64,000 nt of DNA from Thermoanaerobaculia bacterium (GTDB taxonomy: Bacteria > Acidobacteriota > Thermoanaerobaculia > Multivoradales > Multivoraceae): NCBI GenBank assembly GCA_963664405.1, contig OY761158.1, positions 1,248,001 through 1,312,000 on the forward strand. Direction: 5' to 3'. This document shows, in pieces, positions 1,476 through 54,332 of the stretch. Positions within the stretch are counted from its first letter, which is position 1; each line of letters starts with the position of its first letter. The position numbers were made by a program, and so were the translations under genes. The notes under the pieces were generated by a model that did no database searches, was not told where the DNA came from, and saw only the letters and a program-made list of their open reading frames with translations.

Positions 1476-2924
<1,449 letters not shown>

Positions 2925-18349: not shown

Positions 18350-19422
18350 TTATAGGTTTTTGGTCTCAGAAGCCCTGGAAGCTATCTCCCGCAACACGTC
18401 GATCTCCAACGCGCGAAGCTCGCGGTAGGCGATGATGAGGAAGTTGCCGCAGCCGCACGCCGGATCGAAGAGCCGCAGCGTGCCGAGCTTGTCCCGGAAC
18501 TTCCGAAGGTCGGCCATGCTGCGGCCGTCCCGGCGGGCCTGCAACCGCCGGAACTCGGCCCGCAGGTCGTCGAGGAACAGCGGCTCGATCACCTTCAGGA
18601 TGTTCTTCTCCGTCGTGTAGTGCGCCCCTTGGGCGCGCCGGTCGGCCGGCTCCATGACCGACTGGAACAGCGCGCCGAAGATGGCCGGCGAGATCGCCGT
18701 CCAGTCGAATCGGCCCGCGTCGAGCAGGGCCTGACGCATCGAGGCGTCGAAATCCGGGATGCGAAGCGTTTCGGCGAATAACTCGCCATTGACGTGTGGA
18801 AAGCGGGCCAGATCGTTGTCGAGCGCCCGCGACCGCCGATCCGGCGGCGTGTTCAGCGCCTGGAACAGCCGCGCCATCCACGGGCCGAGGTCGGCGCCAT
18901 CGGCGGCCGTGCGTTCCTCGATGAACTGGAGGAAGATGTCGCGCGGCTCGAAGATGCCGGTGTCGTCAGCGAACAGGCAGAACACGGTCCGTACCAGGAA
19001 CAACTCCAGGTCGTGACCATCGTAGCCGGACGCCTTCAGCGCAGCGTGCAGATGCGCGATCAACTCGGACGCCTCGATGTTGACCGGGTCCTGGTCGCGG
19101 AACGTGCGGCGCTGCACGCCGATGATGAACCCGAACTTCTCGACGTGCTGCGGCAGGTCGGCGAGCACGAAGCGTGTTTCTTCGCGTTCGTCGCGATCGA
19201 GCAGCTCGAACGACCGGAAGTCGCAGAGTAGCTGGTAGCGGGGGCGGTCGCGTTCAGGCAGTGCGTCGAAATACGAACCGGCCTGCTGACTCGCGGCGAC
19301 CAAGTCGCGCCCGGCGCTCTTCTGCTCGACCAGCAGGACGCCGGGCCAGAAGAGGTCGATGAAGCCGGACGTATCGTCTAGCCGCCGAACGTGCTCCTCG
19401 TAGCGGGCTACCGTGCGCCGCC
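18350..19422 (-). pseudogene. MmeI-like type IIG/IIL restriction-methyltransferase fragment, both ends lost
   Basis: GFIDLFWPG, LFADDTGIF, ISPAIFGALFQ, GAHYT, DPACGCGNFL. Confidence 0.85.
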
Positions 19423-19425
19423 GGG

Positions 19426-19923
19426 TCAGTTTGGGCGGTCGGGTCTGGAATCATCGCCCCTCAGATACCTCGCCCCCAAATCCTCCTCCTCGTCGACGGG
19501 CTCGGAGATATCTAGCGCTTGTGCGTCTTTTGGTGATAAGCCAAGATCGGCCTGAAACGAACGCATCAATTTATACTCCATGTTTAGAGGCTGTAGTAGA
19601 TGATGCTTTGCCATATTAACTTGCCCCGAGGAGCCCTGGCGCAGCATCTCAGGGCCGTCTCTTTTTAGTATAGCTTCCATCTCCCGGCAACGGGCCCAGG
19701 CTGCGCACCAGCCAGCCATAGCGCCGAGGTATTTAGCCCGGTGTGTGCCATCCTCCGCCATGCGGAAACACAGCCAGCGCCATATCCTCTTTGCCTGGTT
19801 CGACAGTTCAGTAGGTGGCTTCGGGTGCACGGTGTCCGCCGGGGGGCGCTGAATAACCCGAGACGCCCGAGCCGTCCCTAGTAGCTCCTTCTGATGTTGC
19901 GTTTTGCGTCGGTTATTCGGCAC
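19426..19923 (-). CDS. Phage terminase small subunit (P27-like), copy 1, followed by a terL stub
   Basis: PKPP.ELS..AK.IW, ..DLGLSP; paralog of 38081..38569. Confidence 0.8.
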   Translation of the reverse strand: MPNNRRKTQHQKELLGTARASRVIQRPPADTVHPKPPTELSNQAKRIWRWLCFRMAEDGTHRAKYLGAMAGWCAAWARCREMEAILKRDGPEMLRQGSSGQVNMAKHHLLQPLNMEYKLMRSFQADLGLSPKDAQALDISEPVDEEEDLGARYLRGDDSRPDRPN

Positions 19924-19980
19924 GGGGCCAGCCTAGATTAGGAAATTTCATTGTGGCACGATATACAGAACACGGGCGCG

Positions 19981-29283: not shown

Positions 29284-30303
29284 TTGAAAATCAACGCCGT
29301 GCTCGTCGGCCTTGCCGCCTGTTTGATCACCGGGCTGCTGCACGCTGCAGATCCCATCGCCACAGACACCCACCGCTTCATCGAAATCAGAAACGGGATT
29401 TACCTGGCGCAAACGACGGCGTCGGTGTTCAACAGCAACTCGTTGGTTGTCGTCAACGACCAGGATGTCGTGGTGGTGGATTCCCATGCCACTCCGGCCA
29501 AAGCACGCGATCTCGTCGCTTCGATCAAGGCGATCACAGCGAAGCCCGTGACCGCGCTGATCAACTCCCACCATCATTGGGACCACACCAACGGCAATCA
29601 GGAGTTCACCGACATTCCGATCATCGGCCATGAGTTCACCTATATGAAACTGGCGATCGCGCCGCATGAAGAGGTAAGCCGTCACCGTGGTCTCAGCCGC
29701 CAGAATGGAGAATTGGCTCAGTTGAGGGAACAGATCGCGTCCGTCGAGGACGACGAGGAGAAAAAACGACTCGAGACCCAAGCGGCGGTGCTTGGCGCGC
29801 ACCTTGGCGACTTCGACGAGGTCGATCCGACGCCACCCAATGTGACTATCAGCGACCGCATGACGCTCTATCGAGAGAAGCGCGAGATCCAGGTAATCTT
29901 CACTGGGCGCGCTCATACAGGGGGTGACGTCGTCGTCTACTTTCCCCAGGACAGGCTCGTCTTCACCGGCGATATGGCGCTAGGAGGGCCGTCATTCATG
30001 GGCGACGGGTTCGTCGATGAGTGGCCCCAGACCATGGAGAATCTCAAAGCGCTCGATTTCGACATCTTCGTTCCTGGCCACGGCAAGCCGGTCACCGACT
30101 TGAGAAGAATCGATCTCGTTCAGGAGTACTACAGAGACCTTTGGAAGAAGACGGCCGCCAAGCATGCCGCAGGGGTGAGCCCGGAGGAGGCTGCCCGCAC
30201 CATCGACATGACCAATCACACCGAGATCCCCATCCCAGAGCCGGGCGTGAACCTCCTGGCAGTAGAACGGATGTACACTCGGCTGGAGAGGCTCCAGAAA
30301 TGA
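29284..30303 (+). CDS. Secreted MBL-fold metallo-hydrolase
   Basis: SHHHWDH, AHTGGD, FTGD, PGHG; TTG start gives a signal peptide. Confidence 0.9.
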   Translation: MKINAVLVGLAACLITGLLHAADPIATDTHRFIEIRNGIYLAQTTASVFNSNSLVVVNDQDVVVVDSHATPAKARDLVASIKAITAKPVTALINSHHHWDHTNGNQEFTDIPIIGHEFTYMKLAIAPHEEVSRHRGLSRQNGELAQLREQIASVEDDEEKKRLETQAAVLGAHLGDFDEVDPTPPNVTISDRMTLYREKREIQVIFTGRAHTGGDVVVYFPQDRLVFTGDMALGGPSFMGDGFVDEWPQTMENLKALDFDIFVPGHGKPVTDLRRIDLVQEYYRDLWKKTAAKHAAGVSPEEAARTIDMTNHTEIPIPEPGVNLLAVERMYTRLERLQK

Positions 30304-30384
30304 TGGCTATCATTTCCTCCGCCTCTAGTTGTCTTTTGGCGCCGAGGACGGCGCACTTTGAGCTTGCTTCCTATTCGCTCCGGG
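30292..30384 (+). repeat. ~90-bp imperfect direct repeat, copy 1 (contains palindrome)
   Basis: Matches 32032..32122. Confidence 0.9.
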
Positions 30385-30557
30385 AAACGGCTCAGACAGA
30401 TTCTGCAAGTCTCGGGTGAGGTTGGCGCGGAGAAATACTCGCTTGTCCGAATACTCGCCCGCGCTCAATCCTGACTGAGAGTCGATGTCCTCGCGCCATC
30501 TCCGGCGCTCGAGCCGGGTTAGTATCTGAAAACCACCACACCAAGGAGGGCGTCACG

Positions 30558-32030
30558 ATGAGCAAGAAGCAGACCCGCCGGGAGTTTCTACAGCAGTCTT
30601 CTCGCCTGGTAGCCGGCACGGCTCTGGCGGGGCAGGCAGCGACACGCGCCGGTGCCCAACAGGAGAGGCCGCCCAACCTCCTCTTCTTCTTCCCCGACCA
30701 GCACCGTCCCGACTGGATCGGCTACGGCCCCAACGCGCTGCCCATCTCGACTCCGAACCTCGCGCGCCTGGCTCGCACCGGCGTGAGCTTCAACCGGGCC
30801 GTCGTCTCCTCGCCCGTCTGCGCGCCCTCGCGTGCCTGCCTCGCCGGCGGACGCGAGTACGACCGCTGCGGCGTGCGCAAGAACGGCATCCCGTATCCAC
30901 GAGATCGCACCACCTACTACCGTCTGCTGCGCGACGCGGGCTACCACACCATGGGAGTCGGCAAGCTCGACCTGGCACAAGGCACCAGGGACTGGGGCTC
31001 GATGCACGCCGACGCCTGGGGCTTTTCGGCAATGATCAACAACGCCGGCAAGGCCGCGGGCATGGGGGCCTACCTCAGTGACCCGGTCGGACCCAAGGGC
31101 CCTTACTACGAATATCTCGACTCTCTCGAGCCACCTCGAGGCCGCGCCTGCGCCGAAGACCTTGCACGGCGCAGCTCCAACCGTCCCGACGGCTGGTGGG
31201 GTGCCGGTACCCCTTCGCCGCTCGGAAACGACGCTTACTGCGACAACTGGATCGCGCGCAACGGCTTGAAGCTGCTCCGGGAGGCACCGGCCGAGCGGCC
31301 GTGGCATCTGGTCATCAACTTCGTCGGCCCGCACCCCTCGTTCGACATCACCCGCGAGATGGAACGAACTGTCCGTGGTCCGGATCGGATCATCAAAGGG
31401 CTGCCGACGCCGCATCACTACCACAAGGGGACGTTCAGCGCTGAAATGCACGTACGCTCGAGGCAAAACTACACCGCCATGATCGAGAACATCGACGGCT
31501 GGCTCGGCCGTTACATCGACATGCTCGAAGAGACCGGTCAGCTGGAGAACACGATCATCGTCTACAGCTCCGATCATGGCGAGATGTTGGGAGACCACGC
31601 CCGCTGGGGCAAGTCAGTGCCCTATCAGGCGTCCCTCGGAGTGCCGCTCCTGGCCGCGGGGCCCGGCATCCGCGCCGGCTTCGAAAGCGACGCGCTAGTG
31701 ACGATCATGGATCTGGCAGCGACCTTTCTCGACTACGGTGGGGTCAACGTTCCCTCCGATATGGACAGCCGCTCGCTGCGACCGCTGCTTGAGGGCCGGA
31801 CCGACAACCACCGCGACGCTTTGCTCTCCGGTCTGTTGACTCCTGAGGGCGACTGGCGACTGGTGTGGGACGGCCGCTACAAACTAGTACGAGACTTCGG
31901 CGACGAGCAATATCAGCTCTTTGACCTCGAGGCCGACCCTCTCGAGACTCTCAACCTGGCTTCTCGCGAGGCCGGCCGCGCGCGCCGCATGAAAGACTGG
32001 CTACCGGAGGGCTTCGAGGAGTCCGCCTAG
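30558..32030 (+). CDS. Tat-exported sulfatase
   Basis: TRREFL; CAPSR; SSDHGEMLGDH. Confidence 0.92.
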   Translation: MSKKQTRREFLQQSSRLVAGTALAGQAATRAGAQQERPPNLLFFFPDQHRPDWIGYGPNALPISTPNLARLARTGVSFNRAVVSSPVCAPSRACLAGGREYDRCGVRKNGIPYPRDRTTYYRLLRDAGYHTMGVGKLDLAQGTRDWGSMHADAWGFSAMINNAGKAAGMGAYLSDPVGPKGPYYEYLDSLEPPRGRACAEDLARRSSNRPDGWWGAGTPSPLGNDAYCDNWIARNGLKLLREAPAERPWHLVINFVGPHPSFDITREMERTVRGPDRIIKGLPTPHHYHKGTFSAEMHVRSRQNYTAMIENIDGWLGRYIDMLEETGQLENTIIVYSSDHGEMLGDHARWGKSVPYQASLGVPLLAAGPGIRAGFESDALVTIMDLAATFLDYGGVNVPSDMDSRSLRPLLEGRTDNHRDALLSGLLTPEGDWRLVWDGRYKLVRDFGDEQYQLFDLEADPLETLNLASREAGRARRMKDWLPEGFEESA

Positions 32031-32031
32031 C

Positions 32032-32122
32032 CTCCGGAAATGATGGCTATCATTTCCTGCGGCTAGTTATCTTTTGGCGCCGAGGACGGCGCACTTTGAG
32101 CTTGCTTCTTATTCGCTTCGGG
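32032..32122 (+). repeat. ~90-bp imperfect direct repeat, copy 2
   Basis: Matches 30292..30384. Confidence 0.9.
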
Positions 32123-32327
32123 TATCGTTGTCGTTTGAGGCTAGAGGAGTCTTCGCGGCAGGAAAGGCAACGCTGCCCGAAGCGCATGAGAAGCAAGTCC
32201 CGAGTGCGCCGTCTGCGGCGCCATGTTCAGCATCCGTAGGAAGTGATACCGATCACTTCCGCAGGATGGGTCAGCGGGCACATTCGAACGAAAACCTACG
32301 GTTTCTTTTCGTAGGAGAGTCCTTCAG

Positions 32328-37994: not shown

Positions 37995-38109
37995 AGAGGT
38001 GGCGCTCACAAGCCAGACGCACTAGCCGCCCGGTAACGAGCTCGCCAGCACAAACCGCCTCAGCGTAGGCCGTCGCCGGGTCAGTTTGGACGATCGGGTC
38101 TGGGATCAT
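37995..38109 (-). pseudogene. Terminase large subunit N-terminal stub
   Basis: DPATAYAEAVCAGE..GRLVRLACERHL overlapping the terS end. Confidence 0.75.
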
Positions 38110-38569
38110 CGCCCCTCAGATACCTCGCCCCTATATCCTCATCCTCGTCAACGGGCTCAGAGATATCTAGCACTTGTGCGTCTTTTGGCGACAAGCCAAG
38201 ATCAGCCTGGAACGAGCGCATGAGCTTGTATTCTCGGTTTAGTGGCTGTAATAGGTGATGCTGCGCCATATTCACCTGCCCATTTACGCCCGTATGAAGC
38301 ACCTGTGGGCCATCTTCTTTTAGTATAGCTTCCATCTCCCGGCAGCGCGCCCAGGCCGCGCACCAGCCAGCCATAGCGCCCTCGTATTTAGCCCTGAGCG
38401 TACCGTCCTCCGCCATGCGAAAACAGAGCTTGCGCCATATGACCCTTGCCTTATTCGACAACTCAGCGGGCGGCTTCGGGTGCACAGTGTCCACGGGCGG
38501 TCGATGCAGGGAGCGATCCGCCCGAGCCGTTCCCTGGAGCTCCTTCTGTGCCTGGGTCTTACGTCTCAC
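38081..38569 (-). CDS. Phage terminase small subunit (P27-like), copy 2
   Basis: K.LQGT.RADR, PKPPAELS, DLGLSP. Confidence 0.82.
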   Translation of the reverse strand: MRRKTQAQKELQGTARADRSLHRPPVDTVHPKPPAELSNKARVIWRKLCFRMAEDGTLRAKYEGAMAGWCAAWARCREMEAILKEDGPQVLHTGVNGQVNMAQHHLLQPLNREYKLMRSFQADLGLSPKDAQVLDISEPVDEDEDIGARYLRGDDPRPDRPN

Positions 38570-38589
38570 CGGCTCATCCTAGCCTAGAA

Positions 38590-38690
38590 TTAGAAAAATT
38601 CACATTGACACGATACCTAGAACACGGGCGCGTCGCTGAAGGCCCTCTTTTATCAGATTAAATGTTTGGTACCCCCCCCCGTACCCGTTC
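38590..38690 (-). other. Putative cos packaging region
   Basis: G9 run, AT-rich tract, GC-rich GCGACGCGCCC, then AATTTTT, directly upstream of terS. Confidence 0.5.
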
Positions 38691-38696
38691 GGCCCT

Positions 38697-38956
38697 TTAA
38701 GGGGCCTCTGAGGGCCTCACAGGGGTATCCTAGCCGCGACTTGATAAACCCCGCGACACACCCGGCCATTACCCGGCCATTAAGTATAAAACTCCTACTT
38801 TTATGCGTCACGGAGACGCCTTTTAAATCAGAATCTGATACCACCCCACACCCACCCCCTCGCCAGCGTCCGTTCGCGCTGTTAAGGGGCCTCTGAGGGC
38901 CTCACAAGGGCACTCTTGGCCGCGACTTGATAGGCAATCAGGCAATCAGGCAATCA
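38697..38956. repeat. Repeat-dense noncoding block
   Basis: 50-bp direct repeats (38697-38746, 38882-38932); ACCCGGCCATT x2 (38760-38781); GGCAATCA x3 (38933-38956). Confidence 0.85.
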
Positions 38957-45309: not shown

Positions 45310-46530
45310 TTAGGCTCTCTCTTTGGAGCCCATCTCTACCACCTCGCCCCCGGGGGAGCCTTCAAGTGCCCGGGCTATTTCGGATGCGATGCGCTCTGCA
45401 CCGGCGCGTACTGGATCCTCGGCGAGATGTGCGTAGCGGGCCGTCGTCTGTGGGCTCGAGTGCCCTAGGACCTTACCGACAATGTAGAGCCCTAAGCCGG
45501 CCGACGCGCCTACCGACGCGAAGCTGTGGCGGAGGTCGTGCAGCCGCACGTCTTCTAGCCCGGCGCTCTCGCGGACGCGCTGCCAGACGTGTTGTAGCGT
45601 AGCTAAGGGCTCTCCGTCGCGGCTGCCGAAGCAGACGTAGGGGTTGCCCGCTTGGCGCTCTGCGTTGGCCAAGAGTTCGCGGACGGGGGCAGTCAAGGGC
45701 AACGCCTTGCGGCCCGTCTTCGAGTCTGGCAGGACGATGAAGCCCCGCTCCCAGTCGACGTCATCCCAGCGCAAAGAGAGCACCTCGCCGGCCCGCATAC
45801 CAGTTAGGAGTAGGAGACGCAGAGCGAGCGTCGTGGTGGGTAGTTGGTCGATCTCCTTCTCGGTCTTCTCGATCGCCTCGGCTACGCGGGCTAGCTCCTT
45901 GCCGGTGAGGAACCGCTCCAATCGGTGCTCGGGGTAGCGAGTGACTAAGGCGGCAGGATTCGTTCCCTGAGCGCGTAGACCCCGCCGCTCGGCAAAGCCG
46001 AGCATTGCCTGTATGACACCTATCGTGTAGTTCGCGGTGCGCTTGGCGCGCCGGCCGATGGACCGATGGAGGCGCTCGACATCCTCTTGCATCAGCTCTT
46101 CGACCTCGATACGCCCAAGGGCGGGGATGACCTCTCGCCGAAGGATGCGGTCGTACTCGTAGATCGTCGAGGGCTTGCAAGTGGGGCGCAGGTGTTCGTC
46201 GAGGTAGAGCTCCGCGAGCTCGGCGACGGTGAGCTTGTCTCGTGCCGCCCGACGTTGGACGAGCGGGTCAAAACCGCGGGCAATCGCAGCGAAGTGCTCG
46301 CGGGCAATCGCCCTGGCCTCCTCGAGCCGGAATCTGCCTATCGGCCCAAGGGACATTCGCCGGTTGCGGCCCGACGGTGCTCGGTACTCGATGAAGTACG
46401 AGCGTGACCCCGAGGGCTTCACCCGGACGCCGAACCCCACCTGCTCAGTATCGCGTAGATAAACATCTCGTGCCGGGTCGGGTCGGCAGGAGTGAACTCG
46501 CTTCTCCGTGAGCTTGATGCGCGGCCGCAT
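45310..46530 (-). CDS. int: Tyrosine integrase with an arm-binding domain
   Basis: GFGVRV..SG, TGMRAGE, HDLRH, LGHS, TTARY. Confidence 0.95.
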   Translation of the reverse strand: MRPRIKLTEKRVHSCRPDPARDVYLRDTEQVGFGVRVKPSGSRSYFIEYRAPSGRNRRMSLGPIGRFRLEEARAIAREHFAAIARGFDPLVQRRAARDKLTVAELAELYLDEHLRPTCKPSTIYEYDRILRREVIPALGRIEVEELMQEDVERLHRSIGRRAKRTANYTIGVIQAMLGFAERRGLRAQGTNPAALVTRYPEHRLERFLTGKELARVAEAIEKTEKEIDQLPTTTLALRLLLLTGMRAGEVLSLRWDDVDWERGFIVLPDSKTGRKALPLTAPVRELLANAERQAGNPYVCFGSRDGEPLATLQHVWQRVRESAGLEDVRLHDLRHSFASVGASAGLGLYIVGKVLGHSSPQTTARYAHLAEDPVRAGAERIASEIARALEGSPGGEVVEMGSKERA

Positions 46531-48140: not shown

Positions 48141-49045
48141 TCAGTTCTCGAACCCGATCGGGGCGATGTTGCAGATCGAGTAGGTCACCGGCGGCCGACG
48201 ACCCCATAGCGGTTCGGCCGTGATCGAGCGCCGGTCTTTGATCTCCGCTTCGAGCGACGCTACCGCTTCCGGCCGGTCGGCGGCAAGATTGTTCTGCTCG
48301 CGCACATCGGTAGAGAGGTCATAGAGAAAACCACGGGGCTCATCTTGATTGGGCTTGATCAGCTTCATATCGCCCTGGCGAACGGCGACGGTCGGGTAGT
48401 TACGCCATACGAAACGGTCGTGCTGTACTGAACCACCCGCGAATAGCGGCAGGAGATTGTGACCGTCGAGGGCCAGGTCGGCCGGCACAGGCCGCCCTGC
48501 CGCCACGATCGCAGTCGGTAGGATGTCGAGGGTCGACACCGGGGTGTCGATCCGGGTGCCCGCGGCAATGGCTTTCGGCCAACGCATCAAATAGGGCACT
48601 CGTACCCCTCCCTCATAATAGGTGAGCTTGCCGCCCGAGAGCGGCTCGCAGGAGCACAATCCCGAGAAATAGCCCGCACATCCGTTGTCGCCGAGAAAGA
48701 CGACGAGCGTGTTCTCCGCCAGACCGTTGCGCTCGAGGGCGTCGAGGATGCGGCCGACCGCATCGTCGAGGGCGGAGATCATCCCGAAGTAGATGCGGTG
48801 GAGCTCGTTCTCCACGTCGGGGAAGCGGTCATAGTACTTCTGGTGACCTGGAACGGCGAGTGCGGGGCATTGAAAGCGGAGTAGAGAAAGAAAGGGTCGT
48901 CTTTGTGCCGATCGATGAAGTCGACCGATTTCTCGCCGAAGACGTCGGTGATGTACTCCGCCACTTCGTGGATCGTCATCTCGGGCCCTTCCACAATCTG
49001 ATTGCCTCTTGATCGGTTCGGCGGTGACAACGGCTCTGCGCCAGC
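48141..49045 (-). pseudogene. Sulfatase 3' fragment, paralog of 52815..54332
   Basis: 1-bp deletion at ~48842 relative to the paralog; 5' part missing. Confidence 0.88.
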
Positions 49046-49170
49046 CGGTCGTCAGTTTTTTCGGGTGGCAGCTCGGGTTGGAGCCAGAGGACATGCAGAG
49101 AGGGCGGCGCTCAACCTATGCAAAGCTTCGGGAAACTCGAAACCCTAGACATGAAAGGAAGACCGTTGCC

Positions 49171-51337: not shown

Positions 51338-51433
51338 GGATCCGCGAACCGATCGCAGCCGCCGCGAAGAGGGTGACACTATTCGAAGCTGGCGAGACCG
51401 GTAGAATCCGGCCCGAAAGCAGGAGAACCAACA

Positions 51434-51841
51434 ATGACGACAAACGGCTACTCAACTCTCGTGCTCGCGATGAGCCTCGCCGCCTGCGCGCCAGGACCCG
51501 AAGCTGGAGACGAGCCCAAAGAGGCGGAGAGACTTTCGGGGCCGGAGCTCGACGGCACGCTTTCCAATACGGACGTGCTTCTGCTCGATGTGCGGGAGGC
51601 CCACGAGCTCCAGGACCTCGGCACTGTCGAAGGCCATCTGCATATCCCCATCGATCAACTCCCGGATCGGCTCGGCGAGCTGCCTCGAGACAAACCCATC
51701 CTCACCGCCTGAAACGGCGGTGGACGAGCCGCGCGTGCCGCGGCCTTGCTGTTGGAGAACGGATTCGAGGTGGCCGGGTTCTGCGGCCTCAGAGACTACG
51801 AAGGTCCCAGAATCTATCCGCCGGCTGGCGAAGAGCCCTGA
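51434..51841 (+). CDS. Lipoprotein rhodanese, probable selenoprotein (TGA 51710-51712), 135 aa
   Basis: Same features as 350..760; synonymous divergence after the TGA. Confidence 0.85.
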
Positions 51842-51848
51842 GGCGATG

Positions 51849-52790
51849 CTACCGACCCGAAGTGAGGCCTAGCTCGAGGTCGAAAAAATCCTTCACTCTG
51901 TGGAGCAGTCCGATCGAGCCGAACTCACCTCCTTTGCCGTGGCCACCGCCCTCGACCGTGTAGAAGGTGTGCTCGACTCCGCCCTGGGTCAGCGCCGCAT
52001 CCAGCAGCTCGCTCTGGTTGTAAGGCACGACAGGGTCTTGGTCGCCGTGGACGATGAGAAACGGCGGATCGTCTGCGGTGACGTAGGTGATCGGATCGGC
52101 TCTGCGTACGAGATCCGGGTGATCTTGAATCGGCCCACCGATCAGCAGCGACTCCGGTGACTGCGGGTCGTCGTGAACCAACCGACTCCCTGCCGCATCC
52201 ATCTTGGTGAGAGTGGTCGGGCCGAAAAAATCGGCAACCGCCTGAACCCGGCTCGACTGATCCGGATGCCCGAGGCTCCCCTCCAACTCCTCGACTCCGC
52301 CACTGGTACCGAGAAGGGCCACCAGGTGGCCCCCGGCGGAGGGACCCCAAACGCCAATTCTGGAGGGGTCGAGATCGTACTTCTCGGCGTGGGCACGCAG
52401 CCAGCGGATCGCCGCTTTGCAATCGTGGATCTGCGCCGGAAAGGTCGCCACCCCACTCAACCGATAGCTGATGCTCGCAGACGCATAGCCGTCGGCAACC
52501 AGGGCGGCGGCAGGGTTGGCATCTCTGCTCCCATTTCGCCACCCGCCGCCGTGGATCCACACGATCAAAGGCAGCGGTTTCTCGGGCCTCTTCTCCGGGA
52601 GGTAGAGGTCGAGCTCGAGATCCTGCTCGGGGGTCTTGGCGTAGACGAGGTTCCTGAGGACGCGGGACCCAGCCGGAGCTTGGCCTTGCCGCCAGTTGGG
52701 TTGTTCAGCCGCGCCGGCCGCCGGCTGCTGCGCGGATACAGCGGGGCCGATCAACCAGACTGTAAGCAACAGGATCTTGATCATGCGCAC
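51849..52790 (-). CDS. Secreted alpha/beta hydrolase (esterase)
   Basis: HGGGW, GPSAGG, HGDQD, GGGH. Confidence 0.93.
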   Translation of the reverse strand: MRMIKILLLTVWLIGPAVSAQQPAAGAAEQPNWRQGQAPAGSRVLRNLVYAKTPEQDLELDLYLPEKRPEKPLPLIVWIHGGGWRNGSRDANPAAALVADGYASASISYRLSGVATFPAQIHDCKAAIRWLRAHAEKYDLDPSRIGVWGPSAGGHLVALLGTSGGVEELEGSLGHPDQSSRVQAVADFFGPTTLTKMDAAGSRLVHDDPQSPESLLIGGPIQDHPDLVRRADPITYVTADDPPFLIVHGDQDPVVPYNQSELLDAALTQGGVEHTFYTVEGGGHGKGGEFGSIGLLHRVKDFFDLELGLTSGR

Positions 52791-52814: not shown

Positions 52815-54332
52815 TCAGTTTTCGAACCCGATCGGCTCGATGTTGCAGATCGAATAGGTCACCGGCGGTCGACGACCCCATAGCGGTTCTATCGTGATCG
52901 AGCGCCAGTCTTCAATCTCCGCTTCGAGCGACGACACCACTTCGGGGTGATCTCCGGCGACGTTGTGCTGCTCACGCACATCGGTAGAAAGATCGTAGAG
53001 GAAGCCGAGGGGCTCGTCCTGATTGGGCTTGATGAGCTTCATATCGCCCTGACGCACGGCTACCGTCGGGTAGTTGCGCCATACGAAGCGGTCGCGCTGG
53101 ACTGAACCGCCCTCGAATAGCGGCAGCAGATTATGGCCGTCGAGGGTAAGGTCGGCCGGCGTGGTGCCCCCCGCCGCCGCGATCGCAGTCGGCAAGATGT
53201 CGAGACTCGACACCGGAGTATCGATCCGGGTGCCCGCTGCAATGGCTTGGGGCCAACGCATCAAATAAGGCACTCGTACCCCTCCCTCGTAGTAAGTGAG
53301 CTTGCCGCCCGAAAGCGGCTCGCAGGAACACAATCCCGGGAAATAGCCCGCACATCCGTTGTCGCCGAGAAAGACGACGAGCGTGTTCTCGGCCAGACCG
53401 TTCTGCTCGAGAGCGTCGAGGATGCGGCCGACCGCGTCGTCGAGGGCGGAGATCATCCCGAAGTAAATGCGATGGAGCTCGTTTTCCAAGTCGGGGAAAC
53501 GGTCGTAGTACTTCTGGGTGACCTGGAAGGGCGAGTGCGGGGCATTGAAAGCGGAGTAGAGAAAGAAAGGCTCGTCACTGTGTCGATTGATGAAGTCGAC
53601 CGATTTGTCACCGAAGACGTCGGTGATGTACTCCGCTACTTCATGCACCGTCTTCTCTGTCCCCTCCACAATCTGGTTGCCTCGCGTCCGGTTCGGCGGT
53701 GACAGGGGCTCTGCGCCGCGCACGAGCAGGTCGGTGCGCGGATCTTCCGGCGAGCGAGAGCGGAACTCGTCGTTCGTCGGCATCGAAAGGACGCCTTCCG
53801 AGAGCACATTGACGAAGGTCGTGGCGCCCGACAGATGACCGTAGAACTCGTCAAAGCCACGATTCGTCGGATAGTGCTCGTCCTTGAAGCCCAGATGCCA
53901 CTTGCCGACGGCGCCGGTGGCGTAGCCGGCGCGCTTCAGATGGTCCGCAAAGGTCAGCTCACCGGCGATGAGACCAACATCCGGCACCTCGGGTGAGAAG
54001 CGGGCGTTGTACTCGAAGCCGTAGCGCTGCTGGTAACGGCCGGTCATGAGAGCCGCACGCGAAGGGGAGCAGACCGGCGTTGTCACATAGCCTTGCTCGA
54101 AGATCGCACCTTCTTTACCGATGCGATCGATATTCGGTGTCGACACGCGATCTCCATAAGTCGAGATATCGGCATAGCCGAGATCGTCCGCGAGGATGAC
54201 GATGATGTTTGGTTGACGGGCCGCCTCGGGAGCCTGCGGGCTCTCCGGGCTCACCGCCCCATCATCGTCGCCGCAAGCGGTGAACAACAGGCCGATCAAA
54301 AGCAGAAAGCCGAGTACCCGTCTTCGCCTCAT
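52815..54332 (-). CDS. Lipoprotein sulfatase
   Basis: LFTAC, ADDLG, CSPSR, GKWHLG. Confidence 0.94.
   Translation of the reverse strand: MRRRRVLGFLLLIGLLFTACGDDDGAVSPESPQAPEAARQPNIIVILADDLGYADISTYGDRVSTPNIDRIGKEGAIFEQGYVTTPVCSPSRAALMTGRYQQRYGFEYNARFSPEVPDVGLIAGELTFADHLKRAGYATGAVGKWHLGFKDEHYPTNRGFDEFYGHLSGATTFVNVLSEGVLSMPTNDEFRSRSPEDPRTDLLVRGAEPLSPPNRTRGNQIVEGTEKTVHEVAEYITDVFGDKSVDFINRHSDEPFFLYSAFNAPHSPFQVTQKYYDRFPDLENELHRIYFGMISALDDAVGRILDALEQNGLAENTLVVFLGDNGCAGYFPGLCSCEPLSGGKLTYYEGGVRVPYLMRWPQAIAAGTRIDTPVSSLDILPTAIAAAGGTTPADLTLDGHNLLPLFEGGSVQRDRFVWRNYPTVAVRQGDMKLIKPNQDEPLGFLYDLSTDVREQHNVAGDHPEVVSSLEAEIEDWRSITIEPLWGRRPPVTYSICNIEPIGFEN

Follow-up and report, generated by a model that had tools for sequence, protein, structure and literature searches.

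Single-domain rhodaneses are familiar from Escherichia coli, where PspE and GlpE are thiosulfate sulfurtransferases and PspE is periplasmic; rhodaneses of the sulfurtransferase type follow the rule of a six-residue C-X4-R catalytic loop. Rhodaneses carrying selenocysteine (Sec) are also on record. Among the new prokaryotic selenoprotein families listed from the Sargasso Sea metagenome is a rhodanese-related sulfurtransferase (available part of PMC1088965), and reviews of 2022 and 2026 (PMC9312934 and PMC13188914, in their available parts) list several rhodanese selenoprotein forms: form 1 with a UxxS motif, forms 2 and 4 with UxxG, both called 'rhodanese-related sulfurtransferase', form 3 with CxU, represented by NF041203, and form 5, TsoB. 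Here we describe two genes, copies A and B, in a window of 64,000 nucleotides (nt), the whole stretch of DNA that was analysed (contig OY761158.1 of a Thermoanaerobaculia bacterium, positions 1,248,001 to 1,312,000). We put the probability at about 0.93 that both copies are intact and encode a small, probably exported, single-domain rhodanese whose catalytic residue is selenocysteine, inserted at an in-frame UGA. Both read U-N-G-G at this position and thus fall under the UxxG forms. Judged by motif alone, they belong to the already catalogued UxxG rhodanese selenoproteins, as form 2, form 4 or a further form.

The Sec assignment is based on homology, Sec/Cys pairing, conservation beyond the UGA, constraint at the RNA level, the fit to a model of the bacterial selenocysteine insertion sequence (SECIS) and the presence of the Sec machinery; selenium insertion itself, its dependence on SelB, export and chemistry are inferred. 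With the UxxG selenoproteins, as covered in the available text of the reviews, the window genes share the rhodanese family PF00581, Sec at the position of the catalytic Cys, the U-x-x-G motif and a Sec/Cys pair with a downstream SECIS. The same text does not list four features found here, namely an N-terminal signal, of export or lipoprotein type, in the majority of members, an invariant second Cys 24 residues on, a near-invariant 16-nt hairpin block and a spread over genomes named as Acidobacteriota. The word Acidobacteri is absent from the available part of the 2026 review (PMC13188914), and we do not claim that the subfamily is undescribed. The two genes are laid out as follows.

51434–51841, + strand: copy B, a complete predicted selenoprotein gene of 135 amino acids plus stop with a single rhodanese domain, from translation with TGA read as U.
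51710–51712, + strand: in-frame TGA of copy B, its predicted Sec codon (residue 93, active site U-N-G-G-G-R), aligning with an invariant Cys column.
51713–51838, + strand: the 42 post-Sec codons of copy B, for the rest of the active-site loop, then a helix, a strand and the conserved CGL-DY motif.
51839–51841, + strand: final stop of copy B, TGA, by direct reading.
350–760, + strand: copy A, the paralogous predicted selenoprotein gene of 136 amino acids plus stop, from translation, alignment with copy B and Pfam.
629–631, + strand: predicted Sec codon of copy A, from alignment with copy B.
701–703 and 758–760, + strand: second Cys codon and final TGA stop of copy A, from alignment with copy B.

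Copy A lies 51 kb upstream of copy B in the same window and is 84% identical to it. The stretch that an earlier note had singled out, 51710–51841, is the 3′ third of copy B. Both proteins match PF00581 well above the cut-off of 22.2 bits (42.6 bits for copy B, 40.2 bits for copy A). In copy B this is the sole Pfam match, covering residues 38–111 and thereby the TGA at residue 93. The match crosses the TGA in both copies, so that a product ending there would be without the catalytic loop. By direct reading, the context of the TGA, P-I-L-T-A-U-N-G-G-G-R-A, corresponds to the catalytic C-X4-R loop of rhodaneses. In the protein collection the two window genes are present only as 92-residue open reading frames (ORFs) ending at the TGA (P0002, P0003). 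On the Sec assignment, real 135-residue enzymes would thus be missing from the annotation because they are called as 92-residue fragments, and the same would be expected in dozens of related genomes. The known picture of selenoprotein biology is not changed by these genes.

The position of the TGA is occupied by Cys in related proteins. Column C93 is invariant in 17 aligned sequences, being Cys in 16 full-length relatives that are 37–58% identical to copy B; in these the Cys is followed by NGGGRAARAAALL...FCGL, and they share the surrounding sequence ILTACNGGGRAARAAALL...GFCGL.DY with copy B. Twelve Cys-form genes were also observed at the DNA level. The exact coincidence of the UGA with the column of the catalytic Cys is a hallmark of Sec/Cys exchange.

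TGA forms were collected from three sources. A search of 60 relatives gave nine matches at E ≤ 3e-28, each with one TGA (two in the own genome and seven in four others). In an even sample of 401 genomes from the phylum, 35 genomes matched at E ≤ 1e-15, with one TGA in 36 of the 37 matches; one of these 36 belongs to an unpublished genome (G108), and nothing else in the analysis depends on it. Named genome records, scanned with a seven-sequence alignment of Cys forms (A3), yielded 62 loci: 27 TGA forms (one locus with two tandem copies), 12 close Cys forms and four distant ordinary rhodaneses, the other 19 having no match to the active-site pattern and being left out of the comparison. By record name, the holders of TGA forms are Vicinamibacterales, Bryobacterales, Solibacteraceae, Versatilivoraceae, Terriglobia and one Eremiobacterota record; all but the last we take, from their names, to be Acidobacteriota. 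The homolog set used below combines 38 loci from the own genome and the phylum with 27 from the named records, one being common to both, and so comprises 64 distinct sequences; five more TGA matches of the phylum sample were left out of the nucleotide-level comparison.

The earlier note had proposed a codon alignment with more homologs as a check. In all 64 sequences the TGA stands in the identical column, before x-G-G-G-R-A-x-R-A-A in the 38 fetched loci, and no frameshift follows it in any of them. The frame stays open for 37–64 codons past the TGA in the 63 homologs that are not ended by a contig edge. The final stops are TGA in 37, TAG in 21 and TAA in five, with one sequence reaching the contig end.

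Substitution patterns were compared as mean pairwise synonymous (pS) and non-synonymous (pN) differences over the 28 sequences that are free of indels. The 30 codons before the TGA gave pS 0.57 and pN 0.20, and codons +12 to +31 gave pS 0.73 and pN 0.185. The interval between, codons +1 to +11, gave pS 0.19 and pN 0.04, silent change there being about one-third of that on either side. Since pN is well under pS past the TGA, the tail behaves as ordinary coding sequence under purifying selection, and in its first 33 nt the silent sites are under an additional constraint.

These results bear on what the earlier note had concluded from copies A and B alone, that the sequence after the TGA is coding sequence under a SECIS constraint and not a pseudogene tail; codon conservation among the homologs and the frozen silent sites support that conclusion. 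The observations behind it were also borne out. Past the in-frame TGA both copies run for the same 42 codons without an indel to a common TGA stop, the first 32 nt are invariant, the first mismatch (GCC/GCT) falling at nt 33, and all six synonymous pairs that it listed are present (GCT/GCC, CTA/CTG, GGA/GGG, GGG/GGT, CCG/CCC and TAC/TAT). The few amino-acid changes it mentioned number four: GTC/TTG (V/L), GTG/GAA (V/E), GAG/CCG (E/P) and ATA/GCT (I/A). By codon position, the differences past the TGA are distributed 3/3/9, and the Nei–Gojobori ratio of non-synonymous to synonymous substitution (dN/dS) is 0.226 before the TGA (dS 0.44) and 0.225 after it (dS 0.32). Of the 15 substitutions in the tail, 8.5 are synonymous against a neutral expectation of 25.6% (binomial P from 0.02 for at least eight to 0.005 for at least nine). 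With just 15 substitutions in the tail, the synonymous excess of the two-copy comparison is by itself a modest, suggestive signal and not a decisive one.

The silent-site constraint coincides with a potential hairpin in the coding sequence. The RNA elements of the two genes are given below.

51728–51744, + strand: predicted SECIS hairpin core of copy B, GCCGCG-CGUGC-CGCGGC, with the loop at 51734–51738 and an extended stem at 51725–51748 containing one bulge, from folding and conservation.
647–663, + strand: hairpin core of copy A, with an 8-base-pair (bp) stem at 645–652/658–665, from folding.
51702–51723, + strand: possible second helix of 8 bp, UCACCGCC/GGCGGUGG, with the UGA in its 6-nt loop (621–642 in copy A), from 101-nt folds.

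The core begins 16 nt past the TGA. Calculated energies are −9.9 kcal/mol for the core and −12.0 kcal/mol for the extended stem in copy B, and −13.4 kcal/mol in copy A. The SECIS model given in the available part of PMC13188914 has a loop of 3–9 nt, a stem of 4–16 bp, a minimum free energy (MFE) of −7.5 kcal/mol or lower, a G at loop position 1 or 2 with G or U after it, and a gap of 16–37 nt between UGA and loop. The window hairpins lie inside every one of these limits, with a 5-nt loop (CGUGC), a stem of 6–8 bp, G-U at loop positions 2–3, a gap of 21 nt and energies of −9.9 to −13.4 kcal/mol. A scan of the whole window with Rfam at gathering thresholds gave no matches.

Of the 64 homologs, 48 share the 16-nt block GCCGCGCGTGCCGCGG without a change, although its codons, for Ala and Arg, are four-fold and six-fold degenerate. 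As the hairpin lies within the codons for A-A-R-A-A-A, both codon choice and peptide are frozen there. Among the Cys forms, this stretch varies both in its codons (CGC/CGG/CGT; GCC/GCG/GCT) and in the residues that it encodes. The family thus offers a clean natural data set on how a bacterial SECIS bears on coding sequence, frozen in the Sec forms and free in the Cys forms. Across the alignment 87.5% of stem cells are paired, compared with 82.5% in shuffles, and none of 500 shuffles reached 87.5%. The loop is closed by G-C in 30 rows, by C-G in two (L065, L068), by G-U in two (including L069) and by U-A in the Eremiobacterota record L107, while the column pair 36/48 is C-G in 31 rows, G-U in three and G-C in one; the third-position stem pairs that do vary tend to compensate.

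The SECIS of the E. coli fdhF type is likewise a hairpin within the coding sequence just past the UGA, with G-U in a small apical loop. The stem, the loop (CGUGC here) and the spacing differ from those of fdhF, and no bulged U was seen here, although none was sought.

The second helix, around the UGA itself, is an uncertain candidate for part of the signal: it has 87% of its cells paired in 36 distinct rows, with pairs 10–27 and 13–24 broken in 10–11 rows and with high values in the slid controls as well. The Ala codon preceding the UGA is GCC or GCT in every A4 row that has Ala. Context or structure may account for this, or it may be a mere by-product of coding for T-A-U-N-G-G.

The own genome carries the machinery for Sec insertion: a tRNA-Sec (72.4 bits, anticodon tca by ARAGORN), selB (339.8 bits), selA (423.1 bits) and selD (362.1 bits), all four exceeding their family cut-offs. 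Its selD has an in-frame TGA of its own (G-U-A-A-K), followed by a similar hairpin, GAGCCC-GGUC-GGGCUC. The selD loci are at G000:C1:388007-388930 (L021) and G000:C1:565727-566650 (L022); a second selD-like match is without a TGA and lies in a 749-residue open frame, which may encode a fusion protein. Among relatives, selB was found in four of the four with TGA forms, and no selB match at E ≤ 1e-60 was found in G444–G446, which hold the closest Cys forms and whose completeness is unestablished.

In the proposed mechanism, SelB carrying Sec-tRNA(Sec) would bind the short GC-rich hairpin in the mRNA, with its stem of 6–8 bp and its loop C-G-U-G-C 21 nt past the UGA, and would deliver Sec to the ribosome once the UGA enters the A site. 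Translation would then proceed for 42 more codons to the second UGA, which is without such a hairpin and would act as a stop. The enzyme might transfer sulfur or selenium, or perform thiol redox chemistry by way of an Se-S bond with Cys117.

Several observations weigh against this account. The stability of the hairpin is ordinary for GC-rich sequence (z against shuffles of +0.58 and +0.52 for 61 nt, −1.5 and −1.1 for 101 nt), and the 61-nt MFE fold of copy B has another pairing in place of the canonical hairpin. There is little covariation, most stem pairs being invariant. When the 3′ partners are shifted by +3 columns, the covariation score is 0.160, nearly as high as the 0.173 of the proposed pairs, because GCN codons repeat in register. 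The RNA-level argument therefore leans mainly on the frozen synonymous sites together with a handful of compensatory changes. The divergent homologs L069–L074, L088, L095 and L098, that is, the VF[FY]U group and three Bryobacterales sequences, misfit the same pairs, and the other hairpins proposed for them were drawn by eye only. The homologs come from related genomes, so that the samples are not independent. Finally, G447 and G448, which have more distant Cys forms and are of unestablished completeness, do carry selB, and G010, which has selB, gave no match to the rhodanese query; the use of Sec or Cys thus does not simply track selB.

The alternative that survives best is one that would supplement Sec insertion and not replace it. 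Insertion could be real but inefficient by design, the UGA serving as a selenium-sensing switch, such that selenium shortage would give mainly the 92-residue, signal-peptide-bearing fragment and the diverged copies would serve different conditions. Decoding and termination at UGA do compete in the bacteria that have been studied, and two diverged copies have been kept here, both under purifying selection (dS 0.44, dN/dS 0.22). However, no sign of regulation was found and the neighbourhood is not conserved: among 103 flanking ORFs of 34 homolog loci no shared neighbour was found, the slightly recurrent ones being a PQQ (pyrroloquinoline quinone) dehydrogenase (two loci, plus a broken one by copy A), a glyoxalase (three), a metallo-beta-lactamase (two) and a peptidase S41 (two), and the Sec-rhodanese gene is accordingly taken as stand-alone. 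Nor did a homology search find in the own genome a Cys-form paralog that could act as a selenium-free back-up, the only further match being a 43%-identical domain inside a 431-residue open frame. We regard a regulatory switch as unlikely.

Much less probable still is that the UGA is read through with a residue other than Sec, either by a near-cognate Trp or Cys tRNA with the hairpin as a general stimulator, or through reassignment of UGA. The computed data do not distinguish which residue is inserted, and UGA is read as a sense codon in some bacterial lineages. However, UGA is also the ordinary stop of the same genes, in 37 of the 64 homologs including both window copies, and so is not reassigned here; moreover, the genome has the full Sec machinery, the UGA falls on the catalytic Cys column and the hairpin fits every SECIS property quoted above. 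With Sec read at the first UGA, the difference between the two UGAs in one mRNA is the hairpin.

Least credible of all is that the gene ends at the first TGA, as a 92-residue product or a decaying pseudogene with the hairpin as an intrinsic terminator and the tail untranslated, for although the protein collection calls the gene in this way and a terminator scan flags 51728–51744 followed by CTTGCTGTTG in copy B (one site compared with 0.7 expected in shuffles), the scan does not flag copy A, the tails of the homologs are not T-rich, in 63 homologs an open frame with a conserved protein motif continues for 37–64 codons with pN well below pS, the 92-residue product would be without the catalytic loop where Cys homologs are full length, and, as a weak point, RNA-library contigs of relatives pass through the hairpin. 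These contigs, from four libraries, carry the invariant block and extend 38–154 nt beyond the hairpin; they represent relatives only, over 51668–51804, and they are weak evidence because DNA may be present in such libraries. Each RNA run contains at most 4% of the sampled words, and the runs are uninformative on expression in the window's organism.

Beyond the active site, three features of the genes concern export, a possible partner for the Sec residue, and translation initiation.

51434–51487, + strand: N-terminal hydrophobic segment of copy B ending in a lipobox-like L-A-A-C (residues 15–18, with Cys18), a putative lipoprotein signal peptide, by direct reading.
51782–51784, + strand: second conserved Cys of copy B (Cys117, in F-C-G-L), 24 residues past Sec, a candidate resolving or partner thiol.
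51421–51425, + strand: AGGAG, resembling a Shine-Dalgarno sequence and placed 8 nt ahead of the copy B ATG (338–342 in copy A), the same in both copies.

Both copies begin with a hydrophobic N-terminus ending in L-A-A-C. In copy B the L-A-A-C fits the lipobox rule [LVI][ASTVI][GAS]C, but the n-region is without Lys or Arg. A crude regular expression sorted the 64 homologs into 33 with a lipobox-like N-terminus, 19 with another hydrophobic N-terminus and 12 with neither; some of these 12 are truncated loci or motifs missed by the pattern, and no trained predictor stands behind the counts. The Cys forms P0006–P0008 have ordinary signal-peptide-like N-termini. Taken together, the N-termini suggest that the family would be mostly exported, often as lipoproteins.

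Cys117 is kept among the Sec forms: an in-frame C[GSA][LIMV] lies about 24 codons downstream in 63 of the 64, and the 64th ends at a contig edge at this Cys. It is kept in 10 of the 12 close Cys forms, and is not found in ordinary rhodaneses or in the solved relatives. Cys117 could be the Se-S bond partner of Sec93. If exported and provided with a partner Cys, a Sec rhodanese would make an accessible system in which to study what selenium contributes to extracytoplasmic sulfur transfer. It is conceivable, though we think it rather doubtful, that the genes represent a distinct, Acidobacteriota-wide subfamily of extracytoplasmic, mostly lipoprotein-anchored Sec-rhodaneses that perform selenenylsulfide redox chemistry between Sec93 and Cys117 or relay sulfur or selenium, and in which the hairpin, with 16 nt the same across orders, dictates the A-A-R-A-A-A of the active-site helix. 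If true, an RNA signal would be fixing protein sequence across long evolutionary distances.

The closest solved relatives are the C-terminal rhodanese domains of coenzyme A-disulfide or persulfide reductases (3nta, 3icr), at E values of about 1e-11 to 1e-12. E. coli PspE and GlpE, like the window proteins, consist of one rhodanese domain, some 100 residues long, and have a six-residue C-X4-R active-site loop; unlike the window proteins, they are Cys enzymes, are without the second conserved Cys, are not lipoproteins and have low sequence similarity to the copies here. The PspE structure 2jtq is a weak match (E 9.7e-4), and the NCBIfam models for GlpE and PspE match weakly, with scores under their cut-offs. 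No NCBIfam model reached its cut-off against the protein. With NF041203 (rhodanese_LYCAU, form 3), the window proteins share the character of a small bacterial rhodanese-domain selenoprotein, but in that family Sec stands two residues past the catalytic Cys, whereas here it replaces the catalytic Cys in the motif A-U-N. Identity with form 3 was considered and rejected, the score being 25.2 bits against the NF041203 cut-off of 115 and the C-x-U motif being absent. A rhodanese of the CxU type does occur in a relative (L032, G059:C16:91150-91473, − strand); its sequence, ...I-T-Y-C-T-U-H-N-E-G..., fits NF041203. No CxU-type gene was found in the own genome with the rhodanese query.

Two observations concern individual Sec forms elsewhere. 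In L040 (G014:C2:406310-406678), Gly replaces the loop Arg (U-Q-G-G-G-G-A) and the tail is 64 codons long; this may be an altered or decaying copy. In the named Bryobacterales record L088, two tandem Sec-rhodanese genes, at about 1285 and about 1684, lie some 400 nt apart, each with a TGA. Two copies are also present in G009, G012, G014 and G062, so that duplication of the Sec-rhodanese gene is not unique to the window's genome.

Upstream of the Shine-Dalgarno-like motif, TAGAAT is common to both copies (51402–51407 in copy B), and a promoter scan upstream of copies A and B found no full sigma-70 site. The similarity between the two loci extends beyond the rhodanese gene.

337–1416 compared with 51420–52468, no strand assigned: duplicated segment holding the whole rhodanese gene and the 3′ two-thirds of a convergent BD-FAE esterase gene, from blastn, the repeats D1 and D2, and Pfam.

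The segment is 1.08 kb long, with 84.3% identity and 33 gap positions by blastn. As far as the gaps can be placed, the signal peptide differs by one in-frame codon and the spacer past the final stop by about 29 nt; no gap falls in the post-TGA tail. In the esterase part, compared at fixed offset, identities are 43/48 and 47–56/60 in all 60-nt windows except the first. Copy B stands tail-to-tail with the BD-FAE esterase gene, and sulfatase genes adjoin. The esterase gene by copy A (797–1444, − strand) is a truncated paralog of 51849–52790 (− strand), with 215 compared with 313 amino acids; it covers Pfam profile positions 55–215 only and is without the N-terminal signal region. Its dN/dS is 0.137 with a dS of 0.444 and there is no frameshift, which gives it the same age as the rhodanese duplication.

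Next to it, 1476–2924 (+ strand) is a seemingly broken PQQ-dependent dehydrogenase, consisting of an ORF at 1476–2018 with a cytochrome c motif and a separate ORF at 2052–2924 whose match is confined to the final ~100 positions of the PQQ propeller profile. Intact PQQ dehydrogenase genes adjoin the Sec-rhodanese gene in two other genomes (L023, L071). On the side of copy B, a truncated sulfatase gene (48141–49094, − strand) covers profile positions 181–300 only and is 85–89% identical to part of 52815–54332 (− strand), 4.7 kb away (D3, D5). A phage-type integrase gene (45310–46530, − strand) lies just upstream of the truncated sulfatase gene, and the integrase and sulfatase region seems to have been duplicated or rearranged locally several times. 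Other repeats in the window pair 19416–19980 with 38071–38632 (83%) and 30289–30389 with 32029–32127 (89–92%), and a further pair, 38672–38725 and 38857–38910 (80%), has the motif TTAAGGGGCCTCTGAGGGCCTCACA in common.

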